A stretch of DNA of 64,000 nucleotides from Schmidtea polychroa (lineage: Eukaryota). The number at the start of each line of letters is the position of its first letter. Within the stretch, counting starts at the first letter, position 1. Of the stretch, positions 1,215-64,000 are shown piece after piece. The notes under the pieces are model-generated. The model did not search any database. It was not told the origin of the DNA and worked only from the letters and a program-made list of their open reading frames with translations. Location of the stretch: positions 28,150,001 to 28,214,000 of the forward strand of contig CM097885.1 in NCBI GenBank assembly GCA_044892525.1. The letters run 5' to 3'. Position numbers and translations under genes: made by a program.

Positions 1215-3147
<1,933 letters not shown>

Positions 3148-5330: not shown

Positions 5331-6461
5331 TAATTACGGAAAAAATATTCACTTACATAAATGTAATTAATTTGAGTTTGTAAGGATTCAATGTAGCAAT
5401 ATTTGATGCAGAAACATAGAAATCGATTAATAAATGTGAAAACTGTACTAAAAATTCAAATATCAAACATTTCACCTAATATCCATAAATTAACAACAAA
5501 TTTGCAACATTAATTTAATATTAATTAATAATAATTAATATAAATTTTTTAATTAACTTGTTTTTATTTTATTGAATTTGTTATTTTTATTTATTTTTAA
5601 ATTTATTTTATATCGAATTAATGATTTTGTATTTAAAATTTAATTCAATAAATACTTAAATTCTTGTTACTTCATTAAGAAGTCTTATTTAATATTTTTA
5701 GTCGATGGTCCGCGAAGAAAATAGTTTAAGAACTCAGCGGTTTCTAGTGTTCTGCAAAAATATTTAAGTTGATGACGGCTATACACCAAACACCACTGAG
5801 ATACATTTCCTATAGTGGTGGTTAGTGAGTACATCAATTGGTCTCAATAAATTGACTGACCAATTTAATAAATCTCAATTATTTAAAAATTTTTTTTAGC
5901 CATTTTTGAAATGGCTTTCAAGTAAGATGTTTTAATTTTAAGTAAATTTTAAAACTTGAATTTTGATCCATATTGATATGAAATCATTATTCAAGTTCTT
6001 AAATATTACTTTTGGTCAACAATTTTAATTATAAATTATTTTTAATTAATTTTTAGGTTTTAAGGAAATTTATTTTTAAGTATTTTGAAATTATTTTGAT
6101 ATAATGTAAGTCTGATATATTTTTAATTATAATTAAATTATTAAATCAATCGCCAAAAATGAATTTTTCTAAAAAATATTTATAAAACAAATATCAGAAA
6201 TTCTAATGAATATTTAACTTAATTTTAACTCAAATAAGATGGTATTTAATTTTCTTTAAAAAATAAATTTATAAACATTTTCAGCGATCATTTATTTTTT
6301 AAAAATTATTTAAATTAAGTCATTATATAAACGTCTCTTAGCGACGCTTTTCTATGAATCTAAAGTTTGTATGTGTTTTTAGTATGTGCTGTGTTTGTGT
6401 GCAGTATTAAATTTTTCTATCACTTTTTAGATTTCGGTAGTGTAAGGCGTATCTCATTGCA

Positions 6462-7570
6462 CTACACCTAATTCCGAAAGTTAACATTGTCTATAATATA
6501 CGTTGGTGAGCACACCAGTTGAGGTGAGTCACCATTTATATGACAATGTTAACTTAATTTCATTTTTTCAATTTTTCAAAAATCGTTTTCAGGTAAGTTT
6601 TTGAATTTTAAGTAACTTTTAAGACTTGAATTTTGATTTTATATAATTATGAGATCATTATTCAAGTTCTTAAATATTACTTGTAATCAGCATTTATAAT
6701 ATAACATATTGATAATTAGATTTCAGGTGTTTTTTTAGGAATTTTATGACATTTTATGCATTTATTTGGCAGTATCTCGCTAAAATGTAAATTAGATATT
6801 TTTATAGTTATAAATAAATAAATTAATCACCAAACACATTTATTTTTTAAAACATTTATGAAAAAAGCGGCGTATATGGATAAAATAGTTTTTTAAGTTT
6901 TTGTAATCTTCTTTCGAATTTTGTCATTTTCTGTAATTCTATGAAAATATTAATTTGTTAAAATAATTTATTAAAATTTACGATTTGCGATTTTTTCTGC
7001 AAATTCAAAGAAGGATCTTCTTCAATATTTGAAATGCTACCTTCACACAAAGGCAGCGTTTGCCAAGAAATATCTGTTATACTGTAAAATATTTTAATAT
7101 TTTATATTTTAATGAATAAATTTTACATTGTCAGATCTTCACCTTCGCAAAAAGGCACTGTGTCCTGAGAAATATCTGTAAATCTAAAGAAAGTTGATAT
7201 TCTAAATTATTTTATAATTAAATCTTATGATGTATTTTCTTCTTTTTGTCTGAAGCTCAAGGTAGAGCAGTCGGATTCTGAATCAAAAAATTTTTTGTGC
7301 ATAACTTTTTAAATAATTTGAAAATATTAATATGTTAATTATATGTTAATCAATGTTAATTTCGGTAAAAAAACACTATATTAATTTTACATGTATTTTT
7401 CATTATGTGTGCTGTGTTTGTATGCTTAATTATTTTTCTCTCACTTTTTAGATTCCTATAATAAATATGTTAACTTTCGAAACATTAAATTTCTACACAC
7501 AGGTAAGTTTGTGTGTTCCTATAATATATATATATATATATATATTTATTTATTGATTTTATTTTAGATT
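6462..7570 (+). repeat. Dispersed repeat of about 1 kb with a hairpin and many splice-like junctions
   Basis: Inverted copy at about 51790-52795; partial copies at about 5890-6300 and 44520-44760. Confidence 0.8.
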
Positions 7571-8203
7571 ATAGGCTATGCTAACTTTCGGAATTAGAAC
7601 ATCAATGCGAAATCAAAGTAAGTATGTATGTTTCTATAATGTAAACTTATTGATTTTTTCTTATATTATAGGAAACATATTTGAGTGGTGTTTGGTGTAT
7701 TATGATGAAAGTTTGTATTCACATGCATTACGGTTGAACAGCATTGGGGAATATTTATTCAATATATGATAAGTTTTGTTGTTGACATTGCTTTTCATCT
7801 AAATTTTATATATTTTTATATAATGACTTTGTAATTCTATATAAACGCTTGTGCTTACATGTTTCGTTGATCTTTTTGATAACCTATAAAGTTCGACAAA
7901 AAAAGCAAAATTTGACAAAATCATCTTTGTTTCTTAAATTATTTTTTTGTCATTACATTTTGTTTAACTGAACTACATAATTTAATTTTTATAATAAGCC
8001 AATTATTTTATTTTGTATACACATCAACCAAATTCCATAATTAAAAGCAAAGTACAATTATAATTACAAATAATGTCTGGAAATAAAAAAGAACTGGAAA
8101 ATCGGAAGTTCACGAAATGTAGGAGATACTATATTTGTTTGTGTCCGGAATGTTCCCAGACCATTACTGTCCAAAGAATCAACTTTATATTAAAGACTGT
8201 ACG

Positions 8204-9169: not shown

Positions 9170-9397
9170 TTGCAAACAAGTTCGTCGTTATTCTCCTCAA
9201 TATATTGGTTTTCAGCACCATGTTCTGGACAGAGTGTTGCGACATGCCATGGCATTTTTTATCAGTGGTGAAACATCCAATCCCAATATATTGTAACACT
9301 TCTTATCAAAAATCATTGCAAATTACGAGTCATTGAAAAGAAATGTGGTTCTCAAGAACACAATCCTATCCTGACTGAGTCAAACATTAGTTGGCGC
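9170..9397 (-). pseudogene. Degraded Cys/His-rich (PHD-like, possibly NSD-type) fragment; left flank of the LTR element
   Basis: Minus-strand pieces LVICND..KCY..LGL..P..PWH..CPEHG..LVC, frameshifted. Confidence 0.3.
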
Positions 9398-9459
9398 TGT
9401 TTAATCGTCCTTTGAAGCTTGGTCCTTATTATAATCATCCGCGTTTCTCGACGGAGCAA

Positions 9460-10038
9460 CTCGTACACTTCATCGGCCACCTCATAATCTGACAGACAAA
9501 TGGAACCTGTATCATTAGTTGCGGTGATTTTCTTGACTTGTAATTTCTCAATATCTGCCTCATGTGCTGGTGTAGGACCACTCTGTTCAAATTGATTCAT
9601 AATACTCGTTACACACTTGTCGAAACTTTGATCTGAAAATATGTAATCTGACAAATCGGATCTAAAATCCAGCGGCAGCAATCCACCAAATAAATTCGAT
9701 ATTAGTTGGCCAAAAACACTATTTCTGTTATCAGGATCTCTTGGAGTCATAAAAAAGGAATCATCAGTTTCGTTTGTAGTACTTCCAACAGGAATATGAC
9801 GAATAAGATGAAAAAAATTCAAAGCCTCATCATCATTTTCCATTGAGTTATGACGAATAATATGAAAAGCATTCAAGGCATCATCATTATTTTCCATTGA
9901 GTTATCAGATTCAATTCTTTCAATAAATCCATCCTTGCACGTCACACATTTATCATCCTGAGATATGTGAACGTCCCTGTTGCATTGAAGAGCATAGTAA
10001 TTCTCGTTATTAAGTGAAGTCATTAAAGAACAAGTCAT
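9460..10038 (-). pseudogene. Intronless RNF115/RNF126-like E3 ligase fragment with truncated RING
   Basis: N-terminal Zn ribbon (YY..QC.....C..C.DGFIE), then DY....FD..VT..MNQFE.SGP.PA...IEKL, then ICL.DY...DEV.EL with the rest of the RING missing. Contains an 18-aa internal tandem duplication. Confidence 0.8.
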
Positions 10039-10290
10039 TAAAGTCCGAATATCAATTTTTTATTGAATCCAAATAGAAAAAAAATCCAAAACATTTTGAA
10101 TTTAAACGACAACTCCAGCAAAATCTCGAACAATCTAATTCAAACCGATACAATCCCGAAATTCCATATAACACAATTAACGCAAGTAGGTAATTAGGAG
10201 CCCGCTGCAGCAATGACCTCCCCGGAGAGGGGGGGGTTCTGCTGCACGATTTTTTTTTGCTGCAACTTTTGATTACGCAATTTTTTTTAT

Positions 10291-10690
10291 CAGACTATAG
10301 TGAGGGGGTCTCGATGGTCCTGGGATTTTCAATACAAAAAAAATTTTCAATACAAAAAGGTGGTCTCAATAAAAAAAGCATGGAATTTTCAGACTATAGT
10401 GAGGGGGTCTCGATGGTCCTGGGATTTTCAATACAAAAAAAATTTTCAATACAAAAAGGTGGTCTCAATAAAAAAAGCATGGAATTTTCAGACTATAGTG
10501 AGGGGGTCTCGATGGTCCAGGGATTTTCAATACAAAAAAAAATTTTTCAATACAAAAATCCGACTACCACTAAAAAAGCCAAGGATTATTCACACTATAG
10601 TGAAGGGGTCTCGATGGTCCTGGGATTTTCAATACAAAAAAATTTTTTCAATACAAAAAGGCGGTCTTCAATAAAAAAGCATGGATTTTT
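10291..10690. repeat. Subterminal tandem repeat of about 99 bp (4 copies; 2 inverted copies at about 20370-20565)
   Basis: Unit CAGACTATAGTGAGGGGGTCTCGATGGTCCTGGGATTTTCAATAC... Confidence 0.92.
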
Positions 10691-10699
10691 CTAGGTCAA

Positions 10700-11530
10700 T
10701 TCAATGGTTCTTAAAAATTAAATTACAATAAATAATGGTCCAAATTTTTCAATTACATTAAATTATGGTCCTAAAAAAATAAATTAAAGTAAATTATGGG
10801 TTTAAAAATTGAATTAAGTAAATTATAGTTCTTAAAAATTAAATTACCGTAAATAATGGTCCAAATTTTTCAATTACAGTAAATAATGGTCCAAATTTTT
10901 GAATTAAAGTAAATTATGGTCCAAATTTTTCAATTACAGTAAATTATGGTTCTTAAAAATTAAATTACAGTAAATTATGGGTCTAAAAATTGAATTAAGG
11001 TTCATATTTTTGAATTAAAGTAAATCATGGTTCAAATTTTTGAATTAAAGTAAATTATGGTTCTAAAAATTGAATTAAAGTAAATTATGGTTCTAAAAAA
11101 TTAAATTATAGTAAATTATTGTCCAAATTTTTGAATTAAAGTAAATCAAGGTCCAAATTTTTCAATTACATTAAATTATGGTCCTAAAAAATTAAATTAC
11201 AGTAAATTATGGGTCTAAAAATTGAATTACAGTAAATTATGGGTCTAAAAATTGAATTACAGTAAATTATGGTTCAAATTTTTAAATTAAAGTAAATTAT
11301 GGTCTAAATAAGTAAATTAAGGTTCATATTTTCGAATTAAAGTAATTAATGGGCTCAGATTTTTCAATTACAGTAAATTATGGTCCAAATTTTTAAATTA
11401 AAGTAAATTAAGGTTCTAAAATATTAAATTAAAGTAAATAATGGTCCAAATTTTAAAATTAAGTAATCAAAGTAAAAAATTAAAATTAAAGTTAAATAAG
11501 TAAATTAAAGTAATAATTTTTTAAATAAGT
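10700..11530. repeat. AT-rich satellite of about 30 bp
   Basis: Unit approximately AAATTATGGTCCAAATTTTTCAATTACAGT. Inverted arrays at 18105-18740, 20003-20290 and 2280-2720. Confidence 0.9.
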
Positions 11531-11784
11531 AAATTAAAGTAAATTTAAGTAAGATTTTAAAATCTATTAACAAAAAGTTGAAATAATAGAAGGGGTTTGA
11601 GAATTGAAATTTTTTAATGAAAATTTTTATGAAATATTTTTCAATGGTAATTTTTAATGGAAATTTTTATGAAATAATTTTTTAAGTTAATTTTTAATGG
11701 AAATTTTAATAGAGTAATTTTTAAGATAATTTTTAATGAAAATTTTCATGAAATATTTTTCAAAGACAAATTTTAATAATAATT

Positions 11785-12525
11785 CAACAACAAACCAACA
11801 ACTTAGTACCAACAACCAGTAACTTATGAACATGTATTAACAACCAGATACCTACAACTAGTTACTAACAACCAATTACCTGATACCAAGTACTTACAAC
11901 TAGATACCACGTACTAAATAACTCTCAAACAACCAGATACTTACAACTAATTACCTGATACTAAGTACCTACAACCACCTAACAAGTACTAACAACCAAA
12001 AACAACCAACTAACAACTAGATACCAAGTACCTACAACCGACAACAATTAGGTACTAAGCATTATCAACCAAGTACCTACAATCACCTACCAAGTACTAA
12101 CAACTAAAAAAAAAAACTAACAACTAACTACAACCTACCAAGTACTAACAACCAACAACAACCAGGTACTAATCATTAATTACCAACTACTAAGTACCTA
12201 CAACTACCTACCAAGTACATACAACCAGGTACTAAGTATTATTAACCAACTACTTACAACCTACAACCAACTAGCTACCACCTACCAAGTACTAACAACC
12301 AACATCAACCAGACACTTACAACTAGATACTAACAACTAGATACCAAGTACCTACAACCACCTACCCATTAACTAGTTACTAAGTACTAACAACTACCTA
12401 CCACCTATTAAGTACATACAACCAACTAACAACCAGACACTAAGCATTATCAACCAAGTACTAACAACCAAGTAACTTACCTAGTACTAAGCACTGTCAA
12501 CTAGATATTAAACACTTACAACCAG
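11785..12525. repeat. C/A-rich strand-biased minisatellite
   Basis: Degenerate CAACTAGATACCAAGTACCTA-type units. Also at 13560-14000 and mirrored in the right arm. Confidence 0.85.
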
Positions 12526-12960
12526 ATGACCACATGAAATTATTGGTTAAATATGAAAATAAGGATTATATTTAGTTGTTAAGTAAATTATGGTGTAAAA
12601 TTAAGAAATAAAGAATAATTAGGTAAATAAAGTTAAAAATTTTAAATAAGTAAATTAAGGTTCAAAATTTAAAATTAAGTAACCAATGGTTCAAATTTTA
12701 AATTAAAGCTAAATAAGTAAATTAAAGTAAGATTTTTAAATTTATTATCAAAAGATTGAATAACCACCAACTTTTTTGAGAAATGTAATTTTTAATGAAA
12801 ATTTAAATGGAAATTTTTTTTTAAGTTAATTTTAAATGTAAAATTTTTTAAGTAATTTTTAATAGAAATTTTTATGGAATAAGTTTTCAATGGTCATTTT
12901 TAATGGAAATTTTAATGGAATAAAAATAATAATAATAAAAATAATAATAATATTAATAAG

Positions 12961-13035
<75 letters not shown>

Positions 13036-16000
13036 TCAATAGTTACCAACAATCGGTTACTGATTATTTTTAACTAGGTGCTAACAAATACTTACAACAT
13101 GATACCACGTACTAACTAACTCTCAGACAACCATATACTTACAACTAACTACTAAATATTCTTCACTGTATTTTATGAAATGCTTTTTAAATTAATATTT
13201 ATTATACAGCTTCTATAATAATTTTAATTACAATCAGTAGAAAAACCTTTTCAAATTTAAAAAAATGTTGATTTTAATCAAAAAAAAACCACAACTCAAT
13301 CACTTTAAAACACCACGTGAAATTCAAAATAATTTAAATTACAATGAAAGACTATAGAATTCTAATTTACAAAACATTCTTCTTTTAATTGATTACTACT
13401 GACTTATTATTGCAAAGTAAAAATCGCATTCAATAAATACTTATTGTTGATCAGTTTTATTATATATGCTCTGAGTTTATCCGACAGGATGTTTTGACCC
13501 CCTAAGGGTACAGGTCGTAAGGGTACTGGCCGTAAGGGTATTGGTCGTAAGGGTATTGGTAACACTCAACCACCACCTACCCATTAACTATCTACTATGT
13601 ACTAACAAACAGCTAACAACTAGATACCAAGTACTTACAACCAAAATCAACCAGCTACTAACAAATATCAACCTACAACTAGATACTAACAACATCGCAC
13701 CAACTACCAAGTACAAGATACCAACAACTTAGTACCAACAACCAGTAACTTACGAACACGGATTTTCAACTATATACCAAGTACTTACAACTAGTTATCA
13801 AGCACTATCAGCAAAATACTATCAACTAGATACCAAGTACCAACAATAACAACACATAAAAATAATAGCAATTAAATACAAAATATTCTTCATCAAATAC
13901 AATATCTTCTTATCAAAATCTAAAAAGTCGATCGGATACCAACTACCAAGTACCAAGTACTAACAACCAACTACCTACAACCAACAACTATGTACTAACA
14001 AATTGATCTTTAAAAGAAAATACTCTTCACTTGAAAAATTGGAGGAAAAATTAATTGAATTCAAGGCATCAATAACTTGGTAAAAATTGATTAAATAATT
14101 GTAAAAATTTAAATTATTCAAAATAAATATCATAAAAATTTAATTAATGGACAAGAAAGAATTCTAATCATCAAGTAAATAAAAGAAAAATACTGATCAT
14201 TCAAGTTGAATCAACTAAGATAATAAATTAATAAAAAGTTTGAAATAAGATCTAATAAATAATTGATTTAGATTGAATAAATTTTAATTATTTTTTTAAA
14301 GTAATACATGTACTCAAATTTATTGACTGATTGCTCAAAATATTGAAAAAATCAGTATAAATTCATTACAATTATCAATGTCATCAATCTACAATAAAAA
14401 TAATTATCATTAAATTCCAAAAGAGACTGATAACTAATGATAACGTCTAATAAACCAGTAAATTCATTTAAATGTCAATAATTAGTATATCCAAGTGAAT
14501 TCTCCAATAAAATCATCTAAAAAGAATCATTTCCCCCTAAATATATCAATATTTAAAGATTGGTATTTTAATGATAAATAATTGTTAAAGATCATATATT
14601 CCCCTCAGACTAATAAGATTCCTTAAATGACTATATTTCAACCCTTAATTCATATTATTACAAATATCATCTAAAAAGGATCAAATTTCATTGAAATAAC
14701 TTTATCTTTAAAGATTAGTATTTTATCGATAAATATCCTTAAAAGGTTATATATTTACCTCAGACTAATAAGATTGCTTAAAATCCATTTAAATGACTAT
14801 AATTATATCTTTAATTCCTATTATCATACATATTTCACTATTGATAAACCCAGTTATAATTAAATTTTTGTTCTAAATGTAAATCACTGCACTCGAAATT
14901 TTAAATAAATATTACTACAATATAACTGACTAGGTCCCATTGAGAAATTTAATTTATTTATTCAATAAAATCTCTATATTCTTCAAATGAAAAAAAAGCA
15001 TGAATAATAACTCCTGAGTACCTACTTTAATTCCTATTATCACGAATATTTCCCTATAAAACATGTCAATATAAATATCAATGTTTTAAGGGAAATTGCA
15101 ATTAGTCAGTTATGAATCAATAATAATGTGAAATTATATCGTTTTATTAGGTTGTGATTAATTCATTGTATATTAATTTAGATTTATGGTTTAGAACAAT
15201 GTTTTATTAAGTAGGGATAATGATCGATTTACTTGGTTTTGACAATGAAAACTTTACAGATAATTGGGATAGACTTCAACTTTAAATTATTTTTATCTTT
15301 ATTTAGACGGACAACGACAAAAGTTGAGAAATATTGATTTAAAACATCGACAACTAAATAAAATTGATCTTTATTGGAAGGAATCTTGATTTTAATTAAT
15401 AATTAAATCGGTTGAATATCGGTAAAAATGATCATTTGAAGAAATATATTTTATTGAATGGATAAATTTAATCTTTCAATGGGACCTAGTCAGTTATATT
15501 TATTTTAAATTTCGAGTACAGTGATTAACAAAAATTTAATTATAACCAGTTTTATCATTAGATTTTATAAATTATTTAGGGTTAATGACCAATTTATTTT
15601 ACATGTTTTATAGGGAAATATTCGTGATAATAGGAATTAAAGTAGGTACTCAGGAGTTATTATTCATGCTTTTTTTTCATTTGAAGAATATAGAGATTTT
15701 ATTGAATAAATAAATTAAATTTCTCAATGGGACCTAGTTATTTCAATGAAATTTGATCCTTTTTAGATGATATTTGTAATAATATGAATTAAGGGTTGAA
15801 ATATAGTCATTTAAGGAATCTTATTAGTCTGAGGGGAATATATGATCTTTAACAATTATTTATCATTAAAATACCAATCTTTAAATATTGATATATTTAG
15901 GGGGAAATGATTCTTTTTAGATGATTTTATTGGAGAATTCACTTGGATATACTAATTATTGACATTTAAATGAATTTACTGGTTTATTAGACGTTATCAT

Positions 16001-17398
16001 TAGTTATCAGTCTCTTTTGGAATTTAATGATAATTATTTTTATTGTAGATTGATGACATTGATTGTAATGAATTTATACTGATTTTTTCAATATTTTGAG
16101 CAATCAGTCAATAAATTTGAGTACATGTATTACTTTAAAAAAATAATTAAAATTTATTCAATCTAAATCAATTATTCATTAGATCTTATTTCAAACTTTT
16201 TATTAATTTATTATCTTAGTTGATTCAACTTGAATGATCAGTATTTTTCTTTTATTTACTTGATGATTAGAATTCTTTCTTGTCCATTAATTAAATTTTT
16301 ATGATATTTATTTTGAATAATTTAAATTTTTACAATTATTTAATCAATTTTTACCAAGTTATTGATGCCTTGAATTCAATTAATTTTTCCTCCAATTTTT
16401 CAAGTGAAGAGTATTTTCTTTTAAAGATCAATTTGTTAGTACATAGTTGTTGGTTGTAGGTAGTTGGTTGTTAGTACTTGGTACTTGGTAGTTGGTATCC
16501 GATCGACTTTTTAGATTTTGATAAGAAGATATTGTATTTGATGAAGAATATTTTGTATTTAATTGCTATTATTTTTATGTGTTGTTATTGTTGGTACTTG
16601 GTATCTAGTTGATAGTATTTTGCTGATAGTGCTTGATAACTAGTTGTAAGTACTTGGTATATAGTTGAAAATCCGTGTTCGTAAGTTACTGGTTGTTGGT
16701 ACTAAGTTGTTGGTATCTTGTACTTGGTAGTTGGTGCGATGTTGTTAGTATCTAGTTGTAGGTTGATATTTGTTAGTAGCTGGTTGATTTTGGTTGTAAG
16801 TACTTGGTATCTAGTTGTTAGCTGTTTGTTAGTACATAGTAGATAGTTAATGGGTAGGTGGTGGTTGAGTGTTACCAATACCCTTACGACCAATACCCTT
16901 ACGGCCAGTACCCTTACGACCTGTACCCTTAGGGGGTCAAAACATCCTGTCGGATAAACTCAGAGCATATATAATAAAACTGATCAACAATAAGTATTTA
17001 TTGAATGCGATTTTTACTTTGCAATAATAAGTCAGTAGTAATCAATTAAAAGAAGAATGTTTTGTAAATTAGAATTCTATAGTCTTTCATTGTAATTTAA
17101 ATTATTTTGAATTTCACGTGGTGTTTTAAAGTGATTGAGTTGTGGTTTTTTTTTGATTAAAATCAACATTTTTTTAAATTTGAAAAGGTTTTTCTACTGA
17201 TTGTAATTAAAATTATTATAGAAGCTGTATAATAAATATTAATTTAAAAAGCATTTCATAAAATACAGTGAAGAATATTTAGTAGTTAGTTGTAAGTATA
17301 TGGTTGTCTGAGAGTTAGTTAGTACGTGGTATCATGTTGTAAGTATTTGTTAGCACCTAGTTAAAAATAATCAGTAACCGATTGTTGGTAACTATTGA

Positions 17399-17461
<63 letters not shown>

Positions 17462-18104
17462 CTTATTAATATTATTATTATTTTTATTATTATTATTTTT
17501 ATTCCATTAAAATTTCCATTAAAAATGACCATTGAAAACTTATTCCATAAAAATTTCTATTAAAAATTACTTAAAAAATTTTACATTTAAAATTAACTTA
17601 AAAAAAAATTTCCATTTAAATTTTCATTAAAAATTACATTTCTCAAAAAAGTTGGTGGTTATTCAATCTTTTGATAATAAATTTAAAAATCTTACTTTAA
17701 TTTACTTATTTAGCTTTAATTTAAAATTTGAACCATTGGTTACTTAATTTTAAATTTTGAACCTTAATTTACTTATTTAAAATTTTTAACTTTATTTACC
17801 TAATTATTCTTTATTTCTTAATTTTACACCATAATTTACTTAACAACTAAATATAATCCTTATTTTCATATTTAACCAATAATTTCATGTGGTCATCTGG
17901 TTGTAAGTGTTTAATATCTAGTTGACAGTGCTTAGTACTAGGTAAGTTACTTGGTTGTTAGTACTTGGTTGATAATGCTTAGTGTCTGGTTGTTAGTTGG
18001 TTGTATGTACTTAATAGGTGGTAGGTAGTTGTTAGTACTTAGTAGCTAGTTAATGGGTAGGTGGTTGTAGGTACTTGGTATCTAGTTGTTAGTATCTAGT
18101 TGTA
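12318..18104. repeat. Large internal palindrome
   Basis: 12318-14701 is the reverse complement of 15736-18104, and 14928-15066 of 15601-15738. Spacer is about 530 bp. Identical mirror ORFs at 13541(+) and 16702(-). Confidence 0.95.
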
Positions 18105-18743
18105 GGACCATTATTTACTTTAATTTAATATTTTAGAACCTTTATTTACTTTAATTTAAAAATTTGGACCATAATTTACTGTAATTGAAAAATCTGAGCC
18201 CATTAATTACTTTAATTCGAAAATATGAACCTTAATTTACTTATTTATACTATAATTTACTTTAATTTAATTTTTTAGGATCATTATTTACTTTAATTTA
18301 AAAATTTGGACCATCATTTACTTTAATTTAAAAATTTGAACCATAATTTACTGTAATTCAATTTTTAGATTCATAATTTACTGTAATTCAATTTTTATAC
18401 CCATAATTTACTGTAATTCAATTTTTAGACCCATAGTTCACTGTAATTCAATTTTTAGACCCATAATTTACTTTAATTCAAAAATTTGAACCATAATTTA
18501 CTTTAATTTAATTTTTAAGAACCTTAATTTACTTTAATTCAATTTTTAGACCCATAATTTACTGTAATTTAATTTTTTAGGACCATAATTTAATGTAATT
18601 GAAAAATTTGGACCTTGATTTACTTTAATTCAAAAATTTGGACCATAATTTACTATAATTTAATTTTTTAGAACCATAATTTACTTTAATTCAATTTTTA
18701 GAACCATAATTTACTTTAATTCAAAAATTTGAACCATTTAATT

Positions 18744-18827
18744 CAAGAAAGATTAAGCACTATAACCTCGTCTTATTACAGAGGAGCTCATGGAATTATT
18801 GTTGTGTATGATGTTACCAATCAAGAT
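18744..18827 (+). pseudogene. Rab1-like fragment (continuation after the WDTAG motif)
   Basis: [28 protein letters not shown] closely matches Rab1 switch II onward. Confidence 0.9.
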
Positions 18828-19037
18828 TGGGTCATCAATGTCAAAGATAAGTTCGTCAATAAAAGCAACGATATTGTATTATGCATTCGTGAGGAAATAA
18901 CATTGAATCATGCTATGTCGGATCTTTCAAATCGATGTGTTTGCAAAACGGAAATCAGAAATTATTTCATTGAAGAATTAGCCAACCGATCTTCTCAGTT
19001 GTCCGAATTAAAACATCAGGGTGCTTTGGCGTTTATT

Positions 19038-19772
19038 TCATGGATACCAGAAACAATGAAAATCAACATGTTTTATTCCAAAAAGACGATTTTCAAGTTT
19101 CAAGCTTTTATTTTCCGCAAAAGAGAACATTGGATCAATTGTTAATAATTGTAAAGCAGCCATAATCATACGACGATTGATTTTCATGTCGACAATCACC
19201 CCCTCCTCTCCATCATCACCGATACTCCAATTGTTAGCCGGATCCATAGCGTGCTTTGCTCTCAATTCCGTAATCAACCTCAACACCTTAGCACCGCAAT
19301 TCTGGGCCAAAGTTCTTGGAATAACTTCCAACGCATTAGCAACAGCCAGATAAGCGTTTTGTTGTACTCCAACGATATTTTGTGCTTTAAGAGTCAAGTG
19401 AGTTGATAGAGCCATTTCCAATGCTCCTCCACCAGGAACGAGAGTATTTTCCATCATAACGTTTCTAACTGACATAGCATCGCCAAGATTTCTCTCAATT
19501 TCATTCAAAACATCTTTGCTGCTGCCTCTCAACAAAATCGAGCATGCTTTGGGATCTTTACATTCAGTGATAAAAGTGAAATATTCATCTCCAATTAATT
19601 TAATCTCGAATAGACCAGCTGGGTCCCATATTTGCAATTTTATAGTTTCATCATCTAATTCAGTAGTTCTGATTTCAAAGTCAACTCCAATTGTGCTTAT
19701 GCAACTTTCCGCATAAGAATCATCTGCAGGTTCTGGATCCATTTTCGATTTCGATATTCTTTCAAGTTCCAT
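19038..19772 (-). pseudogene. Intronless in-frame Rab1-CCT3 (TCP-1 gamma) chimeric ORF
   Basis: [38 protein letters not shown] (Rab1, P-loop deleted) is fused to [30 protein letters not shown]...VPGGGA.EMA...[15 protein letters not shown]...LRAKH (CCT3). Confidence 0.88.
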
Positions 19773-19911
19773 TTTAAACTTTTACAAAATTTTATCCAGA
19801 TAAACAATAACTTATTTTCTCACTTCCAGAATTTTCTATTAAACCATAAAATCAATCAATAAAAATTACAATTCACAATTATCTTCAATCATTCACATTC
19901 GAATCCACGTC

Positions 19912-19972
19912 TCGCGTCTGTGTGCGCACACCAACAATATTCGGTCTAACCAGACCGCGCACACAGACGCGA
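19912..19972. promoter_or_regulatory. GC-rich inverted-repeat module GCGTCTGTGTGCGC-N~30-GCGCACACAGACGC
   Basis: 16-bp stem here; further copies at about 20730-20782, 20815-20871 and 23371-23432. The regulatory role is inferred from position only. Confidence 0.55.
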
Positions 19973-20891
19973 TAGAAAAACTATGCCAAATCGGCAGAAA
20001 CATTTAATTCAATTTTTAGACCCATAATTTACTGTAATTTAATTTTTTAGGACCATAATTTAATGTAATTGAAAAATTTGGACCATTATTTACTGTAATT
20101 GAAAAATTTGGACCATTATTTACTGTAATTTAATTTTTAAGAACCGTAATTTACTTTAATTCAATTTTTAGACCCATAATTTACTTTAATTTAATTTTTT
20201 AGGACCATAATTTAATGTAATTGAAAAATTTGGACCATTATTTATTGTAATTTAATTTTTAAGAACCATAATTTACTGTAATTGAAAAATTTACCACGTT
20301 TTTTAGTGTAGACCACCTTTTTCTATTGAAATTCTCAGGACCAAGAAAACCCACCTGAATTGACCTAGAAAAATCCATGCTTTTTTATTGAAGACCGCCT
20401 TTTTGTATTGAAAAATTTTTTTGTATTGAAAATCCCAGGACCATCGAGACCCCTCACTATAGTGTGAAAATTCCATGCTTTTTTATTGAAGACCGCCATT
20501 TTGTATTGAAAATATTTTTTGTATTGAAAGTCCCAGGACCATCGAGACCCCCTCACTATAGTCTGATAAAAAAAAAATTGCGTAATCAAAAGTTGCAGCA
20601 AAAAAATCGTGCAGCAGAACCCCCCCCCGGGGGGTCATTGCTGCATCGGGCTCCTAACTACCTACTAACGCACAACCTCACCAAATCGATATCACAAAAC
20701 TCTGAAAATGATAATATTGACAATTGTCCGCGTCTGTGTGCGCACACAAGTCCATCCATAAAGGTAAAAAGCGCACACAGACACGAGATAAACTAATAAT
20801 TTGACAATTGTCCGCGTCTGTGTGCGCATACAAATCAAACCCAAAAAACAGGTAAAAAGCGCACACAGACGATCGACCCGATAATCAACCA

Positions 20892-21105: not shown

Positions 21106-22310
21106 TTATTGATTCGCTTCTATTTCCCGTGTCAGTTTATCCCTTTCCCCCTTCATTTCCTGCATTTCCCTCGCCATCCTATCACTGTCAGCCTTCACCT
21201 GGTGAATGATTTGCACACTTCCATTCAATTCTTGGCATTTTCTGTCGACACGTTTATTGATCATTACTTTGGCCTTCAAAATCCAATATTTTTCGTTCAA
21301 CACACTTAAGACGTGTTGCGTTCCTGCATAATGGCTCAATCTCCAATAACCCTCACATACCCATCTTTGTATTATACCACGCACCTTTTTTGAAACATCA
21401 TTGTGAATTCTCCACCCACCATCGCCATACTCGGCCAAGCAGCTGTCCCTGCTCAGTTTGTTTAGGTGTAATATCTCAATTATTCTTTCTCCATTTTTCA
21501 ACAATTCAATATTCCACACTTTTCCTTGTTGCATTTCATTTAGTGACCAGTTTTCACTTAATGTTCTTATAAGCATCCTACAAAGACGTTCTTTGATTGC
21601 TTCGTGTTTCAATTCCACAATCGACACCTTGTTTTTTATGTGCATCTTTAGAGGCGTGCAAACGAGTTCCAGTGATCGGTGTTGTTTGAAACTGTTCGAT
21701 GATTCGTTCAACTTTTCTGTTAAATCCAAAACTTCTTTGGCCCCTTGAACATTATCACGTTCTTCTTTTAGTCGATTAACTTCCCCTTCGCCGATCTGAA
21801 TATCATTAACCGCCGCCTCGGATAATTTTATGATCTCACCATCCCGGCAAGCCTCATCTTGCTTTTCCCTGTATTCATTTTTCATTGAATATTTTGTGTG
21901 ATTGTAATGACGTTAACTAATTCGTTAGTTCGTCCAGAATTGAATATTTTCCCATCTAAATGACTCTGAGCTCCTTGCTCTTCATTAGATGCCTTACTCC
22001 TGTCGAGTTGCGTGTCCTCAATTCCCCGAAATGCACGTAACTCGTCATTTAACATTTCAGTTACCGCAAAATAACTCTGAACCGTACTCATTGATGTGTT
22101 TTCATTTAATAATTTGCTGTGTCTTTGCTTACATCCGGTAACCTTGCAGAAAGATTCTTTATGACATTCCTTGGCCATATGATTTCTTTTGAACCAATTC
22201 CTGCACAGTTTCTTTTCTTCGGTGACTTTCTTCCTTTTTGAAATTGTGAGTTGCTTGAACTTGTCACATTGGTCTAGGTAATGTTGACCACCACATTATA
22301 CACACTCTGA
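21106..22310 (-). pseudogene. Deleted BEL/Pao gag-pol mosaic
   Basis: Triple Zn-knuckle CV*CGGQHYLDQC..F......R......KLC.N....H.AKEC.....C....CKQRHSKLL (about 22105-22310) and integrase Zn region HYAGTQHVLSVLNEKYWI...C (about 21230-21335). RT and RNase H are not recognisable. Confidence 0.8.
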
Positions 22311-22679
22311 TCTATAGAAGTTAGAGTTATTCGCCTGTATAACCGTTCCACTTTTAACTCTGCCATCTGGTTGCCTCGTAAAATGCGTCCGCACTCCTGT
22401 ATTGAAGCTTTCTCTTCATCTAGACACACCCTCTACTCTTGGCCCATCATAAGTCCTGGTGCTTGGTTGAGTCCCATACACAACCTCGTTAGTGGACCAT
22501 AGCAGCACTTTCTCATGCTCAATAGGGAATGGAGGATGGTTAATTTTACAGAAATGCAAATAAAATTCAAATAAATGCAAAAATAAATTTAAATGACATG
22601 CAAATAAAATGTTTAAATCACCCTTTATCAGCCAGGGCTGTCTCCACTGAAACATTGGTGCGTAGCCCCCTGAAGGGAA

Positions 22680-23216: not shown

Positions 23217-23455
23217 ATTTCACTAAGGCTGAAAATTGAAATCAAAATTATAAATCAATTCTTTAAAACCACAATTCCAGAAAACATAACTCTCGAACCA
23301 TCTAAAATCCAACCGATACCATCAAAACCCGAAATCGATCAAAAAACTGAAATAAATATTCACATTTGTCCGCGTCTGTGTGCGCACACAAATCAAACGC
23401 AAAAAAACAGGTAAAAAGCGCACACAGACGCGCGACCCGATAATCAACCAGGCGT

Positions 23456-33209: not shown

Positions 33210-33895
33210 TATAATAATAATAATTATAATAATAATAAAAGTAAAAACTGATGATAGCAGCTTTCTTTGTAACAGTTTTAGTTAAATGTTAAAGAAGTAA
33301 ATGATAATTAATAAATAACTTCACCATTTTTATATTATATATTTTAAACGTTGCCAACACTTTGTACGCATTTATTATTAACAAATCACTAGCAACAACT
33401 ATTTTTACTATTTTTATTGTTCTTGTTTTGCTCTCTCCATATACCAGATTTTGTGCATTGAGAACTTTCTACAGTAAATGTCGAACAGGTCCTATTCTTT
33501 GTAACAGCTTTAATTAAATGTTAAACAAGTAAATGATAATTCAAGTCTTTTGCTGCTAAGTATATATTCAATAAGATGAAATAATTTTCGGTTAGAAAAT
33601 TAATCCTTATCGAATTGATTCTCTTTAATAAATTTAGTAAATCTTTTATTAATTATATATTATTTATATTAGCGGGATTCGGTTTACGTTCTATTGAACC
33701 CAAACAAGAAAAGGATAAAAAAATATTCTCATCTTAACTCGACAAACGATTCCATGTCATATTGATAGAAATGATATAATTAATTAATAATATATTTAAT
33801 AAATTTTATCCAATACAAAATTAAACAAATTAGAATAAATCAAGATAATTAATTATTTAGAAAATATTTAATATAAATTTAAATTAAAATAAAAT

Positions 33896-34765
33896 ATGAT
33901 TATTACAAACAATTACAAATGCATCAAAACTTTATTTTCATCAAAGAAAAGTGAAGTGTATATCGCTGCAAATAATTCTCCTCGCAATAAAAGCCATAAA
34001 ACTGTAGTTATTAAAAGTTTCTACAAATCGGAAGTTTATTTATTCATTAGAAATTCAAATTATGTATTTCCAATTCCAATTGAAATGCATTTTAACCAAT
34101 TAATCAATGATGATAAAATTTGTCCTAAATTTCTTGATTATTTTCAAAATGATAATGAATTTGCTATTGTAATGGAATATTTGACGGGCGAATGGATTGA
34201 ATTGCATGATTACATTTCAATAAAAAGAGAGGAATATGAAATAATGAAAGTCGTACGAAATGTAATTATTAGCATAGAAAAATTGATAAGCAAAGGAGTT
34301 TATCATTTAGATATTAAACCAGAAAATATCATGCTTAATAGATTGACATATGAAGTAAAGATTCTTGATTATGAAGATGCTCTTTATGATGTTGAAAATA
34401 AATATCCTAAAAGTAATATGTTAGTTGGAACGTCCGGGTTTTTTGGTCCAGAGGTATTTGGTGAAAAATTATATGATGTGACGAAAAGTATTGTATTCAC
34501 GATAGGCGCTCTTATTTACAAATGCTTAGAAAGAAAACAACCGTTTCAATTAAAAGATTCTCATTACATTCAGAACATACAATTTACAAGATGCTCGCAA
34601 ACAGTGGAGGAATTAATTTTAAAATGTCTTTCTTTGGAACCAAAGAAAAGAATAAATTTAGATAAAATACGCGCAGAAGCTTGGTTTCAAGAAAGTAGTA
34701 GTTCACTAATTAATTATTTAATTTTATTGTTTTTGATTTTAATTAATCTAATATTAGTTTTATAA
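33896..34765 (+). CDS. Divergent Pim-like Ser/Thr kinase, intronless, 289 aa
   Basis: VVIK, IPIEM, VMEY, HLDIKPENI, ILDYE, GTSGFFGPE, LILKCL..EP.KR, AWF; hydrophobic C-terminal tail. Confidence 0.88.
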   Translation: MIITNNYKCIKTLFSSKKSEVYIAANNSPRNKSHKTVVIKSFYKSEVYLFIRNSNYVFPIPIEMHFNQLINDDKICPKFLDYFQNDNEFAIVMEYLTGEWIELHDYISIKREEYEIMKVVRNVIISIEKLISKGVYHLDIKPENIMLNRLTYEVKILDYEDALYDVENKYPKSNMLVGTSGFFGPEVFGEKLYDVTKSIVFTIGALIYKCLERKQPFQLKDSHYIQNIQFTRCSQTVEELILKCLSLEPKKRINLDKIRAEAWFQESSSSLINYLILLFLILINLILVL

Positions 34766-43633: not shown

Positions 43634-45653
43634 CTATTGATGAACCAAATTTTAATATCCATTATTTTAAATAGAATATTACATACTGTCCATTCATCAT
43701 GGGCTTCAACAGCTTCTAATACTGAATTGGTTAATCATGGCCATAATATAATATACCTTATACACCTACAAACGGTTCCTTTTGACGTTTTACCCGTTTT
43801 TGATGTTAAAACCTTTCTTTTCTAACGAATTTCACAAGCATTTATCACAATTTTCTGGATTACATCTACTAACTGAAAAAGAATTTCTAACGTATTCTTT
43901 AGTTTTTTCAATACTCGCGTGACAAAGTTGTGAATTTCATCTAGAAAAGTTTTACTTTTTCGGAATATAGATTTTATTTTCATATTTAATCAAATTGTCA
44001 CTTATCAAATATATAATTGGTTGCCCGATAGTATTGTATTTTTAGTCTTTTCGATTTCATCGTCCTTATTTTGTCACTTTACACCCGTTTGCAGTGAACA
44101 AACGCATTTATAATGTAAAAATAAAATCAATACGTGTATATTATATAAACATACAAACTTACCTGTGTGTTGATTTTTAGCGTTGCAATGAACAAACGCA
44201 TTTAATATAGAAGGTGGTAGAAAAAATAAATTGACACACAAAAACACAACACCTAGTAAAATGTGCATGCAAACTTTATACATGTAGAATCGTTGTAATG
44301 AATAAATGCACTATAATAAATCATTTACAGATATTTTTAGAATTTTTTAGAAAAAAATGACGGATAAAACTTTGAAGAAAATTCCGAAAACTCAACTTTG
44401 AGTTGTATAGATAATAAAGTCATTATTTTGTAAGATTTATCTTCAATTTTTAATAAATTTAATATTAGTTTTTTTAATAGAACATGACAAAATTCGACTA
44501 ATTGCTTTATCTATTTATAGTTAAAAATATATCTGACTTACATTATATCGATAAATTTCCAAATAACTTCATAAAATTTCATAAAAATTCTAAAAAACCT
44601 TGAAATTTAATTATAACTTATAATAAAATTGTTGATAAAAAGTAATATTTAAGAGCTTGAATAATGATCTCATGTCTATATGGATCAAAATTCAAGTCTT
44701 AAAATATACTTTAAATAAAAAAAATTACTTGAAAGACATTTCTAAAATGGCTAAAATAGTTAATCGTAAATTAAATATTTCATCAGAAATACATAACAAT
44801 TATAAACTGAATACATTCCATCACAAATAATGACGCATCCATAATTGGTTGTACACACGAACCCATATTATAAATGCGTTTATTCAGTGTAAACGGGTGT
44901 AATATGTCTCCACTGTCCGTCATTGCCAAAATTTGAGTTCTAAACTTTTGCATCTGGATGATTGAGGTTATACTACGAGCACTGGCTAATATCCGTTCTA
45001 AAAAAAGCATCTGCATTGAAATGTAATTTCGCCTTTGCGATATTAAAGTTTCATATTCAATCTACTCAAAAAATTTATCTAATTTTAAAATTGTATTGTT
45101 ATTGGTTTCTTTATTGTCATCATAAATGTTATAGCTTTGTGATCAGTGCGTTATGTGAATTTTCTTTCAAAGTGCTAGAGTTTGAAATGTTGTGTAAAGT
45201 GAAATACACACAACAATTCTTTTCTTGTTATGATCTCGTGAGTATTCAAACTCTTAGAACCATAAGATATAACGTTTTCATTATTTTTATAATAAAATTG
45301 AATATGTGGTTGTTTTTTCATTTTTTTAGATTAACATTTTTTCTTGAGTTCAATTTAAGTTTGGTTTTATATGCTTAATAAGATTTGTCAATGTAGCCTT
45401 GTAGCAATAGAACTAGAGCTGATAAAATAGTTCAGTGTACGGACAAAACATTCATTAATGAGATTATTATTCTTAAACTGCTTAACAGCATTTGAAAATA
45501 TGATTTACATTAAGAAAAAAAGTTGGATTAACGAAACTAAATTTTTTTTTAATTTTATTTCTAAATAAGAAATGGCACACAAATAATTTAGAATATATTA
45601 AAAAGAAATCGCGTATTTTATACAAATATAGTGACACCCGCTGTTCTAACAAA

Positions 45654-45828: not shown

Positions 45829-48236
45829 TTATTTAAATTTGTTTCAGATAAAAGATATATCGAGTTTAGGATATATATTTAACACAATTTTTCAAATTTC
45901 CAGGTGTCAAAAACTTAAATAAATTTAACAAAATCTAACAAAATCTACAAGAAAAAATATTATAAATAAAAAATATATAAAAATTAAAATCATCGAATTA
46001 CTATTAAATTTTAATTTTAATTATTTTTAGATAAATTTATATTAATATTTAGATGGATTTAATATTTTTCTTTTAATATCTTTTCATGCGGAATTTCCCT
46101 AAATGCTTCTTTTTCTTTTGATGCTTGATTAATATATAATTCTTTAAATATTAATGGATTATAAGGAAAATGTTCTGTTTATTATTCTTTTTATATTTAT
46201 CTATGTTTTTTATTAATTTATATATTTATATTAACCATTTATTAAATTTATTTATTTAATTTTTTTGAGATTTTAATATACTTTTACTTCGAAAAATATA
46301 AAATAAAATTAACATGATAATCATTTACTTAATTAAATTTTGAAATAATAATTTTGTGAATATAATAAACTAATTAAAAATTCTAAATAATCGAATATTT
46401 TTAAAGACTTCCTAATGTATTTTCTGCAATTTTTAAATTTAATATATTCACAGTTGTAATGCTAAAACTTAATAAAATTATTACCAAGACGAAAAATACT
46501 AGTAACCAAATTACTTTAACCATTTATTATAAAAATATCAAAAAATTATAAAACAAAAGTTCAAAAAAATTTAAATGTGAAGAATTTCTAATAATTTCTT
46601 ATAAATAATTTTACAGCCAAATATTCTCAAATTTATTAATTATTCAGAAATAATATTCCAATATTATTTTTGAAATAATTAATTTAAAATATTTTATTTA
46701 TTGTGTTAAGTTTATTTATATAAATAAATAATTTTAAATACCCATATTGATATCGAATATAGGTTTCACTAAATCTACTTGGAAAATGCCTGACTTTCAA
46801 TAACTCTCAAATCGAAACTCAGTTTTGACCGAATTTCAACGAAATATGTCCAAATAAAATATCTTAATGAATGTAGAAAATATCTGTATTTTAAAAATTT
46901 TTAAATATTCAAATTCATTGGGAAAAGGAAGTGCCGAAAATTCGTTAATATCTAGAACATCGATATATTTACTGATTTATAATCTTCAAGCTCTTTTTAA
47001 TAAATACAATGAGGAAAAAACCATTAGTGAAATTAGAAAACAAGTTCTTATAATAAATAGAAATGAATCAAAATTAGTGATCAGATCTATACCAAAATAT
47101 AACAATAAAAGAAATACCCAAATATAGGAAATAAATATTTTTATATATCCTAATATTGAGTTTGAACATATTTTACATCAAATATATGATGATATTTTTT
47201 GCATATGTCGAAATTAGAAAATTATATAATTGATCAAGTTTTTGAATCCCAACCTCTATTTAAAGGGCCTATTAAATGTTTTGACAAATAATATGCAATA
47301 CATATGCAAAACACGAAATGATTAACAAATACAATTTGTAATTCATATTGATGATGAAAAAATGTGATGACCAACAAATTTTGACTGAAACCAATGTTGA
47401 CTGACAACTAAATTATTCTTGAGGTTGCATATGACATATCCAAATTTATTCATTGAGTATAGCGCAAAATACAACTACGAACATGACTGCAACGCATTTG
47501 TTGGTAATAAATATGGATGAAAATAAATAATTAGATCTTAAAGGGTTCAGAGGTACTTATTCACCATTTCGTTAAAATGAATTAATTCTTTAAATTTTTT
47601 ATATTTAAAATATCAAATTCAAAATTAAATTGTCAGAAAACTGATAAAAATAAAGCTTACAAGACATTGACATGAAATGTCACACATTATTTAATCAATG
47701 AAAAAAATGTTTTAATTATAAACATATAAATCAAAAAAGATTTATAAATTAACATATATTGTCCCATAGGTGAAACAAATTGTTTGAATTAAATTAATAA
47801 AATATTAAAATTTATAAAAACAATAAAATTTTATTCCACGTTTTAAACAAAATTTTAAATTCATATTTATAACATGTTTATGTGGTTTATATCACATTGA
47901 TTTATCACATTTACACATATTATACAATTATTTAGAAACACTAAACAAATGTTACATTTTGAAGAAATATAATATCTATATTTCCTGAAAATTTAAACAT
48001 ATTTTTAATCAAAATAATATTTGTACAATCATTAAAAACTCAAATTTCAGAAAGAAATGACAGCAAATAAAAGCGTCATATTATTTAAGCGGAAATTATA
48101 ATTCAAAATTGACCACCCTTCATAATAAAGAATCATTAAATCATTTTTTAGTAAATTCTTGAATAATAATCTTTTTAATAATATATAATAAAACTAACAA
48201 CGCAAAAACTAACAAAATAACACAGAATTATAAAAA

Positions 48237-49043
48237 TTAAGATTGAAACCAAATGTCGTTGCGTATTTCCTTTATTTTCATTCTTTTTGTCGGATTAGAA
48301 GCAAGACAATTTTTAATTAAATTTTGTAATGTTTTTGAACACCTTAAAAATATTATATCCTCAACGTAGCAATTGTTTTTTAATAGATATGGAGGTTTCC
48401 TTTCTATGCAACTGTAAATTAGAGCGCCTAACATGAATACAACACTTTTGTTCACATCATAAATTTGACTGCTTATTGCCTCTGGACTGCAATAACCAAT
48501 TGTTCCAGAATAACTGTTAGTTTCAGGATAATCATTCTCATCATCGTCGAGTGCATCTTCATAATCAAGAATCTTTACCTGATATGTTGTTTTATTTATG
48601 ATAATATTTTCAGGTTTGATATCGAGATGATAAATGCCTTTATCGATTAATTTTTCAATGGCAATTATTACATTTTCTACAATTCTTTTAACACATCTTT
48701 CTTGTCGCTTTTTCTCCATAATGTATTCCCCTAGTTCAACCCATTTACCAGTCAAATGTTCCATAACAATTGAAAATTCTTTGTCGTCTTGAAAGAAATC
48801 AAGAATCTTAGGGCAAATTTCATCATCATTAATTAATTGATTAAATTGCATTTCCAGTGGAATACGAAATGGATAATTTGGATTCTGTGCAAATAATCTA
48901 TTTTCAGATTTGTGGATTCTTTTAATCACTACAGTTTTGTTCCTTTTATTGTTCTGGGAATTATTCTCAGCAATATATACTTCACCTTTTACTGATGAGT
49001 GAAGGGTTTGAATGAATTTATATTTATCACTAATATTTATCAT
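48237..49043 (-). CDS. Divergent Pim-like Ser/Thr kinase, intronless, 268 aa
   Basis: VVIK, IPLEM, HLDIKPENI, ILDYE, GTIGYCSPE, LIKNCL..NP.KR, IWF. Confidence 0.9.
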   Translation of the reverse strand: MINISDKYKFIQTLHSSVKGEVYIAENNSQNNKRNKTVVIKRIHKSENRLFAQNPNYPFRIPLEMQFNQLINDDEICPKILDFFQDDKEFSIVMEHLTGKWVELGEYIMEKKRQERCVKRIVENVIIAIEKLIDKGIYHLDIKPENIIINKTTYQVKILDYEDALDDDENDYPETNSYSGTIGYCSPEAISSQIYDVNKSVVFMLGALIYSCIERKPPYLLKNNCYVEDIIFLRCSKTLQNLIKNCLASNPTKRMKIKEIRNDIWFQS

Positions 49044-49432
49044 TTTTATTTGGTTTGTATTTCATGTTTTAGATTTTATAAATAGTAATACAATTTGTTT
49101 ATTTTATATTTGTCTAATTTATTATTAGATGAAAATATAAAATAATAAATTATAAATAATTTATAAAATATTTGGATCAAATAGAATTGACAAGAGTTAA
49201 ATATATTTGGAAATTTTTCATCATTTTTGATTCATTGACCAAATAAATACAATTTCTAAATTTCATCTGAGTAGAATTACGTGAGGGTTCTGATCCATGA
49301 GCCATTATCGCCTCAAATACTTCTCATGGTCATTATGAGATCAAGCCTGGACATACGTATCATTTTTACTTTAGTAAAACATTTAAATTTGTAACGTGAT
49401 CTTCTGATTTTCATCGGTTTGACGGTCTAAAC

Positions 49433-51510
<2,078 letters not shown>

Positions 51511-51789
51511 GAATTTTGGTGTGATATAAAGACCTCACTAAAATTCAAATTTAAATGAAATAAAACGTTTGTTTGTTGCTGTAAATATGAAACAACTTAC
51601 CTAATTTAAATGTGCAAATATAATAATTATAATCAATGCAATTAATATTAGCCAATTGAAACGAAAATAAAATACAACGATGGCTGGACGATTGTGCACG
51701 TGGTTTTCAGGTCATACACATACATAGACAAACACGTTACTATTCGCAACATATGGTGTCGAAAATACACCTAACCGCGAAATATAACA

Positions 51790-62621: not shown

Positions 62622-63010
62622 GTTTAGACCGTCAAACCGATGAAAATCAGAAGATCACGTTACAAATTTAAATGTTTTACTAAAGTAAAAATGATACGTA
62701 TGTCCAGGCTTGATCTCATAATGACCATGAGAAGTATTTGAGGCGATAATGGCTCATGGATCAGAACCCTCACGTAATTCTACTCAGATGAAATTTAGAA
62801 ATTGTATTTATTTGGTCAATGAATCAAAAATGATGAAAAATTTCCAAATATATTTAACTCTTGTCAATTCTATTTGATCCAAATATTTTATAAATTATTT
62901 ATAATTTATTATTTTATATTTTCATCTAATAATAAATTAGACAAATATAAAATAAACAAATTGTATTACTATTTATAAAATCTAAAACATGAAATACAAA
63001 CCAAATAAAA

Positions 63011-63817: not shown

Positions 63818-64000
63818 TTTTTATAATTCTGTGTTATTTTGTTAGTTTTTGCGTTGTTAGTTTTATTATATATTATTAAAAAGATTATTATTCAAGAATT
63901 TACTAAAAAATGATTTAATGATTCTTTATTATGAAGGGTGGTCAATTTTGAATTATAATTTCCGCTTAAATAATATGACCATTTATTAGTAGGGTATTGT

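Follow-up and report, generated by a model that had tools for sequence, protein, structure and literature searches.

A gene-less palindrome with Maverick-type ends and arms of two ages in Schmidtea polychroa

How does an element without genes of its own come to be, over most of its length, a mirror image of itself? The question is raised by a 10,482-bp element at positions 10185-20666 of a 64,000-nucleotide stretch of Schmidtea polychroa DNA (assembly GCA_044892525.1, contig CM097885.1, positions 28,150,001 to 28,214,000 of the forward strand), referred to below as the window. A first-pass annotation had read the element as a Maverick-type copy-back defective genome, made in one event and integrated in trans. 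We saw that the element was inserted as one unit and that its arms fall into two age classes. With a probability of roughly 0.52, we favor the explanation that this is a gene-less element with target-site duplications (TSDs) on either side, that it comes from a larger snap-back Maverick lineage and was integrated by a helper, and that its left arm later served as the template from which the inner part of the right arm was copied anew.

The element starts with AGTAGG at 10185 and ends with CCTACT at 20666; on both sides stands the hexamer AACGCA (10179-10184 and 20667-20672), a perfect 6-bp TSD with a chance of occurrence of ~1e-4. An uninterrupted paralog of both flanks is present on the forward strand at 23233-23450. 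The right flank aligned to 23332-23450 (E 5e-33 and 2e-19); the left flank, 10071-10162, aligned to 23233-23335 with a local-alignment score of 53, whereas the controls scored no higher than 33 (1,276 window tiles) and 35 (1,000 shuffles). This left-flank match was missed by BLASTn alone and rests on local alignment with these controls. As the two alignments meet in one paralog, the flanks were contiguous before the insertion, and with its flanks uninterrupted in the paralog the element is itself an insertion, which arrived as one unit. A fold-back read would be expected to mirror the flank, without a return to a unique right flank and a TSD. We saw no sign of such an artefact, which the first-pass annotation had named as a concern: the flanks are unique and not mirrored. 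An assembly-artefact origin of the palindrome is thus unlikely.

Self-comparison of the element showed the same order of components on both sides (terminal tip, 99-bp repeats, 30-bp satellite, inner arm) around a 534-bp spacer, 15067-15600, defined by the exact arm ends. The arms measure 4,882 and 5,066 bp, and ~72% of the element's length is paired. On the left (forward strand), the tip beginning with AGTAGG (10185-10289) is followed by 4.0 copies of the 99-bp repeat (10290-10691), the unit of which is 84-85% like one in a relative at 1278-2976 (E2 below), and by the 30-bp satellite (10704-11447, collinear with the right-arm satellite as far as 11447). Further inward are a left-only block with a 13-bp repeat and CA-rich repeats (11448-12317), the left inner arm with degenerate repeats and an AAT tract (12318-14701; non-coding by profile search), a second left-only block of 227 bp (14702-14928) and the innermost arm (14929-15066), an exact 138-bp mirror of 15601-15738. 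The left inner arm holds a conserved motif at 13473-13487 and a 15-bp repeat, common to a polymerase-bearing relative at 54189 (E3 below).

On the right (reverse strand), the inner arm (15601-18104) is a near-identical mirror of the left one without the 227-bp block (absent at junction 15738/15739), 12 bp of the AAT tract and 3 bp. The junction 18104/18105 skips the equivalent of the left block 11448-12317; beyond it the satellite is split into an inner part (18105-18746) and an outer part (20001-20292) by host-derived cargo (18747-20000), which is bracketed by a 12-bp direct repeat. Then follow 2.1 copies of the 99-bp repeat with a variant unit (20293-20566) and, delimited by alignment with the left tip, the right tip ending with CCTACT (20567-20666); the two tips differ by 2 substitutions in 98 columns and by homopolymer indels. 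The first-pass annotation had given the same termini with a perfect 6-bp TSD, a mirror of tip, repeats, satellite and inner arms around a spacer of ~530 bp, two left blocks without partner (placed at ~11447-12317 and 14702-14927, at most one base off), unequal repeat copy numbers and a cargo cassette; all of this agrees with our analysis, with the qualifications that about a quarter of the length is unpaired and that the arms are not equally alike throughout.

Every length difference between the inner arms is a loss on the right side. Since E2 runs across the outer border of the block 11448-12317, its 870-bp equivalent was lost from the right arm; the 227-bp block was likely lost too, as public runs show high depth over its first part. 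For the 3-bp indel, contigs of public runs show the left-arm state in the sequence family.

The identity of the arms is not uniform. Between 12318-14701 and 18104-15739 we found two substitutions, the 12-bp indel in the AAT tract and the 3-bp indel; with the exact 138 bp included, 2 of 2,504 sites differ (0.08%). In the outer ends, 15 of 838 columns were substituted (1.8%), a figure that refers to six collinear blocks selected by us, not to all outer sequence. Divergence in the outer ends is thus ~20 times that in the inner arms (Fisher p 7e-8; for the terminal tip alone, 2/98, p 0.008), and identity drops at junction 18104/18105. Repeats alone do not explain the outer divergence, because a repeat-rich stretch of the inner arm has one mismatch in 642. 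A copy-back genome should have arms of the same age over its whole length, and such arms were not found here: one copy-back event does not fit. The single copy-back event of the first-pass annotation does not find support in that form, in view of two age classes, loss of two blocks from the right arm and gain of cargo, along with a spacer that behaves as ordinary arm sequence of the family.

From what kind of element do the arms come? Two relatives in the window bear on this question. E2 (1278-2976, forward strand) has AGTAGG..CCTACT ends inside an AAT tract and 260-bp inverted ends; at 1601-1717 it retains the last ~35 codons of a Polinton-type polymerase. Downstream of the polymerase, and at that end only, E2 carries the 30-bp satellite and the 13-bp repeat (76% identity to the focal arm over 635 bp). 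Its terminus is 83% like the focal one over 30 bp, in addition to the shared repeats. E3 (54189-58384, reverse strand) is flanked by a 6-bp duplication, TAAACT, and has a terminus at 58384 that is 71-74% like the focal terminus over ~80 bp (E 1e-5 to 9e-8). A broken and truncated Polinton-type polymerase reads inward from this terminus (~57580-55220); its main open reading frame (ORF) is 50-53% identical, over the full length, to the PF03175 proteins P0029 and P0030, and it groups with PF03175-type clusters in the Atlas placement. PF03175 is the family of organellar and viral type-B DNA polymerases (PolB).

Three modules of the focal arm (11620-11707, 12534-12683 and 13446-13545) are collinear at the polymerase-distal end of E3, and a 15-base motif within these modules occurs three times in the window, in both arms and in E3, with 0.02 occurrences expected. 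E2 and E3 agree in polarity, with the arm modules at the polymerase-distal end. Since the repeat modules of both relatives lie downstream of the polymerase, both focal arms match one Maverick end. As judged from two deleted relatives, then, both arms appear to derive from the polymerase-distal end of a Maverick/Polinton family. A non-autonomous Maverick derivative is expected to have 6-bp TSDs and to share homologous ends with PolB-bearing elements in its own genome; we found AACGCA with an empty-site paralog, and homologous ends in E2 and E3. AGTAGG agrees with (AGT)2 at five of six letters and is the start common to E2 and the polymerase end of E3. The Maverick affiliation claimed earlier is thus borne out through two polymerase-bearing relatives with related ends, and the question raised with it, whether both arms come from one end, is answered by their common match to the polymerase-distal end of these deleted relatives.

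Some further observations concern this family. The E3 polymerase stops near 55220, with arm-type modules directly after it, and the two ends of E3 are strongly unlike each other despite the intact 6-bp duplication. An orphan Maverick-type terminus at 1136-1214 faces E2 across the shared AAT tract; the family may favor AAT microsatellites. The P0030 cluster has 19 close polymerase relatives, and 12 of the 15 listed are on public contigs of 11-16 kb and are candidates for full-length members of the lineage. In viral contigs, polymerase queries gave no relative; in genome contigs they matched 25 loci (L002-L026) at 24-34% identity, with one at 54%. At the DNA level none of the 25 loci matched the focal element, and the 12 loci longer than 5 kb lacked inverted repeats of at least 40 bp. 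These loci lie in contigs of prokaryotic genome bins and are probably mis-binned eukaryotic or viral DNA.

Is the spacer a fold, or is it more of the arm? At 15432-15561 it contains a diverged unit that belongs to the degenerate tandem array of the arm; the unit has the orientation of the right arm and resembles 14838-14990. The spacer is continuous with the repeat array of the right arm; the loop is parent sequence contiguous with one arm, and an off-centre deletion would equally leave such a loop. The spacer edges are weakly self-complementary, with 2% of random pairs scoring equally well. This continuity of the array and this weak complementarity of the edges are expected whether the spacer arose by a fresh fold-back or by an off-centre deletion in a larger palindrome.

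Public runs offered a second view of the spacer. A run search listed 17 runs; six of them hold at least half of 274 sampled words (best share 0.77), while sediment metagenome runs, with small shares, carry no weight as evidence. Four runs, all made of short contigs, were mapped onto 14650-17390, where low depth in two bins is no proof of absence. Contig pieces matching at 85% or more numbered from 388 to 51,971 across the four runs, which points to a large, diverse family to which the arm sequence would belong. Arm-to-spacer depth ratios were 0.99, 0.79, 1.25 and 1.09, not 2; summed contig depth, on which they are based, is not a copy number. As the spacer continues the right-arm array and is covered as deeply as the arms, it is likely the remnant of a longer arm rather than a family-wide loop. 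A loose contig end at 15073 in run X3 was considered as a fold junction and rejected, the true arm end being 15066.

The same runs bear on the history of the arms. Among 40 of 243 variants, 28 were arm sites; at 16 of these 28 the element carries a letter that accounts for <10% of the depth summed over the contigs of run X14, and in all 16 cases the letter is the same in the two arms (15 of the 16 letters are rare in run X1 as well). The arms therefore track each other and not the family majority.

The element has no replication genes that we could find. Only two ORFs of at least 80 aa start with ATG: a read-through of the 99-bp repeats, and a Rab1-CCT3 chimera in the cargo; genes for capsid, ATPase and protease were absent among them. 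Pfam searches of all six frames of 13040-15603 (X at stops) gave no matches, six-frame translations of the arm had no match in the window, and no ORF or remnant of a protein-primed PolB or an integrase was found inside 10185-20666. The earlier statement that Maverick ORFs are lacking is in accord with the ORF list and the Pfam results, which extend it to remnants. An Rfam search also gave no matches.

The cargo, ~1.25 kb that interrupt the right satellite, has the 12-bp direct repeat on both sides of the whole. Its ORF of 244 aa (19772-19038) joins an N-terminal piece of Rab1 to a piece of CCT3 (Pfam Ras and Cpn60_TCP1; the CCT3 part matches CCT gamma with E 1e-54). The Rab1 start is internally deleted in this ORF, and the next Rab1 segment stands inverted at the other end of the cargo; no introns were seen in it. 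The cargo is likely a separate chimeric insertion into the satellite. A tubulin piece was suspected in it and not confirmed: tubulin appeared neither in Pfam nor among 60 of 177 PDB matches. A hairpin-forming motif pair is present at 19913-19968 (upstream of the cargo's Rab1 start), twice in 20729-20870, and at 23371-23429 in the flank paralog; it is possibly a housekeeping promoter element.

Taken together, the insertion as a unit, the modules of one Maverick end, the lack of replication genes, the two age classes, the losses from the right arm only and a spacer made of family arm sequence are the basis on which we favor descent from a snap-back lineage with later re-copying. The build resembles a snap-back defective genome, yet the arms fail the same-age expectation for a single copy-back. 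A polymerase template switch, during protein-primed replication, would have founded the palindromic lineage; a helper integrase would then have inserted the focal copy in trans. The outer ends would have aged and acquired the cargo, and once they had diverged, the inner 2.5 kb of the right arm would have been overwritten from the left. Such re-copying could have proceeded at this locus by repair with template jumps, leaving the 227-bp and 870-bp gaps.

Several points weigh against this reading. Vertebrate Mavericks end in (AGT)2 or (AG)3, and the focal AGTAGG is neither of these. As deleted and diverged relatives (70-85%), E2 and E3 do not amount to a full autonomous helper, and the polymerase-side end of E3 has weak low-complexity matches to the focal arm. 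Depth ratios near 1 suit linear parents as well as larger palindromes, and the rare letters common to both arms may be subfamily letters. No listed contig piece of the four runs spans 14650-17390 or crosses an element-specific junction, although with contigs this short that is no proof of absence. Two metagenome scans with terminus and module patterns gave no matches, so that no second palindromic copy was seen; in viral contigs the same patterns gave nothing useful, with one unrelated chance match, and a further pattern scan gave none.

The alternative that survives best is a mosaic born in replication. In this scheme, the one nearest to the first-pass annotation, strand-displacement replication would have included a fold-back of the polymerase at 15066/15601 and its switch from one sister genome to another at 18104, and the product would have integrated as is; the right outer end would then stem from another family member. 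The weak self-complementarity of the spacer edges, the step down in identity at 18104/18105 and a large diverse family, in which sister templates exist, all suit this scheme, and subgenomic molecules of phage phi29 have been attributed to template switching (PMC4974454). The same edge homology is, however, expected from an off-centre deletion, and a spacer as deeply covered as the arms gives a family-wide fold no support. As the scheme needs three switches in one molecule and cargo already present in the donor, we regard it as unlikely.

Next in order comes an ordinary non-autonomous Maverick with terminal inverted repeats (TIRs) of ~1.3 kb, never replicated as a snap-back, in which a later chromosomal inverted duplication-deletion made the inner palindrome. 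The mirrored outer 1.26 kb are inside the range of vertebrate Maverick TIRs, 46-1,447 bp (PMC8097293). Two age classes would follow naturally, and the depth ratios near 1 suit linear parents. Against it, the satellite or the modules are at one end only in E2 and E3, and what bounds the outer mirror is a deletion junction rather than a TIR border that fades out. This origin seems to us rather improbable.

Two further explanations we hold to be very improbable. The element could belong to a cut-and-paste superfamily with foldback members (FB, Galileo or MULE type) and have no more than a likeness to Maverick ends; such elements typically have long modular TIRs with tandem repeats, and captured pieces of host genes. 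Those superfamilies, however, make duplications of 7-10 bp, while the focal element and E3 have 6-bp TSDs and both relatives retain pieces of a Polinton-type polymerase. For a fold-back read or assembly artefact one could cite that no listed run holds all sampled words and that no spanning read was seen, but against this stand the unique flanks, perfect TSD and uninterrupted paralog, the substitutions, indels, deletions and cargo specific to one arm, and the rare rather than majority letters kept by both arms.

One could speculate, somewhat beyond the favored reading and with confidence short of even, that Mavericks sustain gene-less snap-back satellites: palindromes of one end, replicated by the protein-primed polymerase of a helper, re-folded and with arms re-homogenised by repeated template switching, integrated with 6-bp TSDs and able to gain host cargo. 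If so, an endogenous DNA virus would have defective-interfering genomes that are inherited, and these would preserve a fossil record of its strand-displacement replication. Genome analysis is the basis of the Maverick replication model; as of PMC8097293, no particles had been observed. Strand displacement, panhandle repair and template switching could be tested directly on one-end palindromes, given their datable junctions and gradients of arm identity, as could the mobilisation of gene-less passengers by an integrase. Such elements escape homology-based annotation of transposable elements, though runs of this organism contain the sequence family in abundance; furthermore, long near-perfect palindromes are potential fragile sites.

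The surroundings of the element hold other features. A zinc-ribbon ORF, 9352-10059 (Pfam Zn_ribbon_19, E 6.5e-5, below the cut-off), has the element ~150 bp upstream of its first in-frame ATG, and the element separates this ORF from the hairpin-forming motif pair. ORF pieces at 21106-22679 resemble a Bel/Pao-type gag in their motifs; neither Pfam nor PHROG gave a match for the two ORFs tested (21106-22295). A 1.9-kb inverted duplication (48066-49988 and 62073-63987, 99.1% identical, 12 kb apart) with a kinase ORF of 274 aa encloses E3 and retrotransposon remnants; a third kinase copy, 72% alike, is at 33893-34765. A further dispersed repeat family was seen at 5892-7590, 44106-44757 and 51778-52796, with 67-86% identity.

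We found no description of a whole-element palindromic Maverick in the literature searched, which did not include subscription papers, Repbase reports and supplements, so that a prior description is possible. Mavericks of vertebrates have 6-bp TSDs and end in (AGT)2 or (AG)3, with TIRs that measure 46-1,447 bp (PMC8097293); in a nematode paper, Mavericks are 13-25 kb long with TIRs of 100-1,500 bp (bioRxiv 2023.08.22.554363). The focal element shares with Maverick/Polinton elements the 6-bp TSD, an AGTAG-type terminus, terminal inverted repeats and kinship to polymerase-bearing copies. It differs from them in the absence of polymerase, integrase and capsid genes, in having both arms from one end, in arms of ~5 kb as against TIRs of 46-1,500 bp, and in a length of 10.5 kb as against 13-25 kb. 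Butterfly polintons, with gene-containing TIRs of ~2 kb (bioRxiv 2025.02.07.637071), are alike in that the inverted repeats reach far into the element; they keep genes and a unique coding centre, whereas the focal element is non-coding with a centre of 534 bp. Asymmetric deletions at inverted junctions have been reported for transgene palindromes (PMC8701086). Halocafeteria elements have terminal palindromes of 52 nt, a feature different from the mirror arms described here.

Foldback transposons (FB, Galileo) and Pack-MULEs have long modular TIRs with tandem repeats and captured host fragments, as the focal element does; unlike it, they are DDE cut-and-paste elements with other TSD lengths and no link to a type-B polymerase. 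Another parallel is phage phi29, the subgenomic molecules of which Murthy et al. reportedly described in 1998 as palindromic. These molecules accumulate in phi29 (PMC4974454), where protein-primed strand displacement yields one-end subgenomes of 1-8 kb, a likeness to the focal element; they are transient phage by-products, whereas the focal element is a heritable insertion. Adeno-associated virus (AAV) forms asymmetric snapback genomes with a loop (PMC8235507), similarly self-complementary, derived from one parent end and helper-dependent, the loop being single-stranded in AAV. The AAV snapbacks are parvoviral, hairpin-primed and particle-borne; the focal element is presumed to be protein-primed and is integrated with a TSD.

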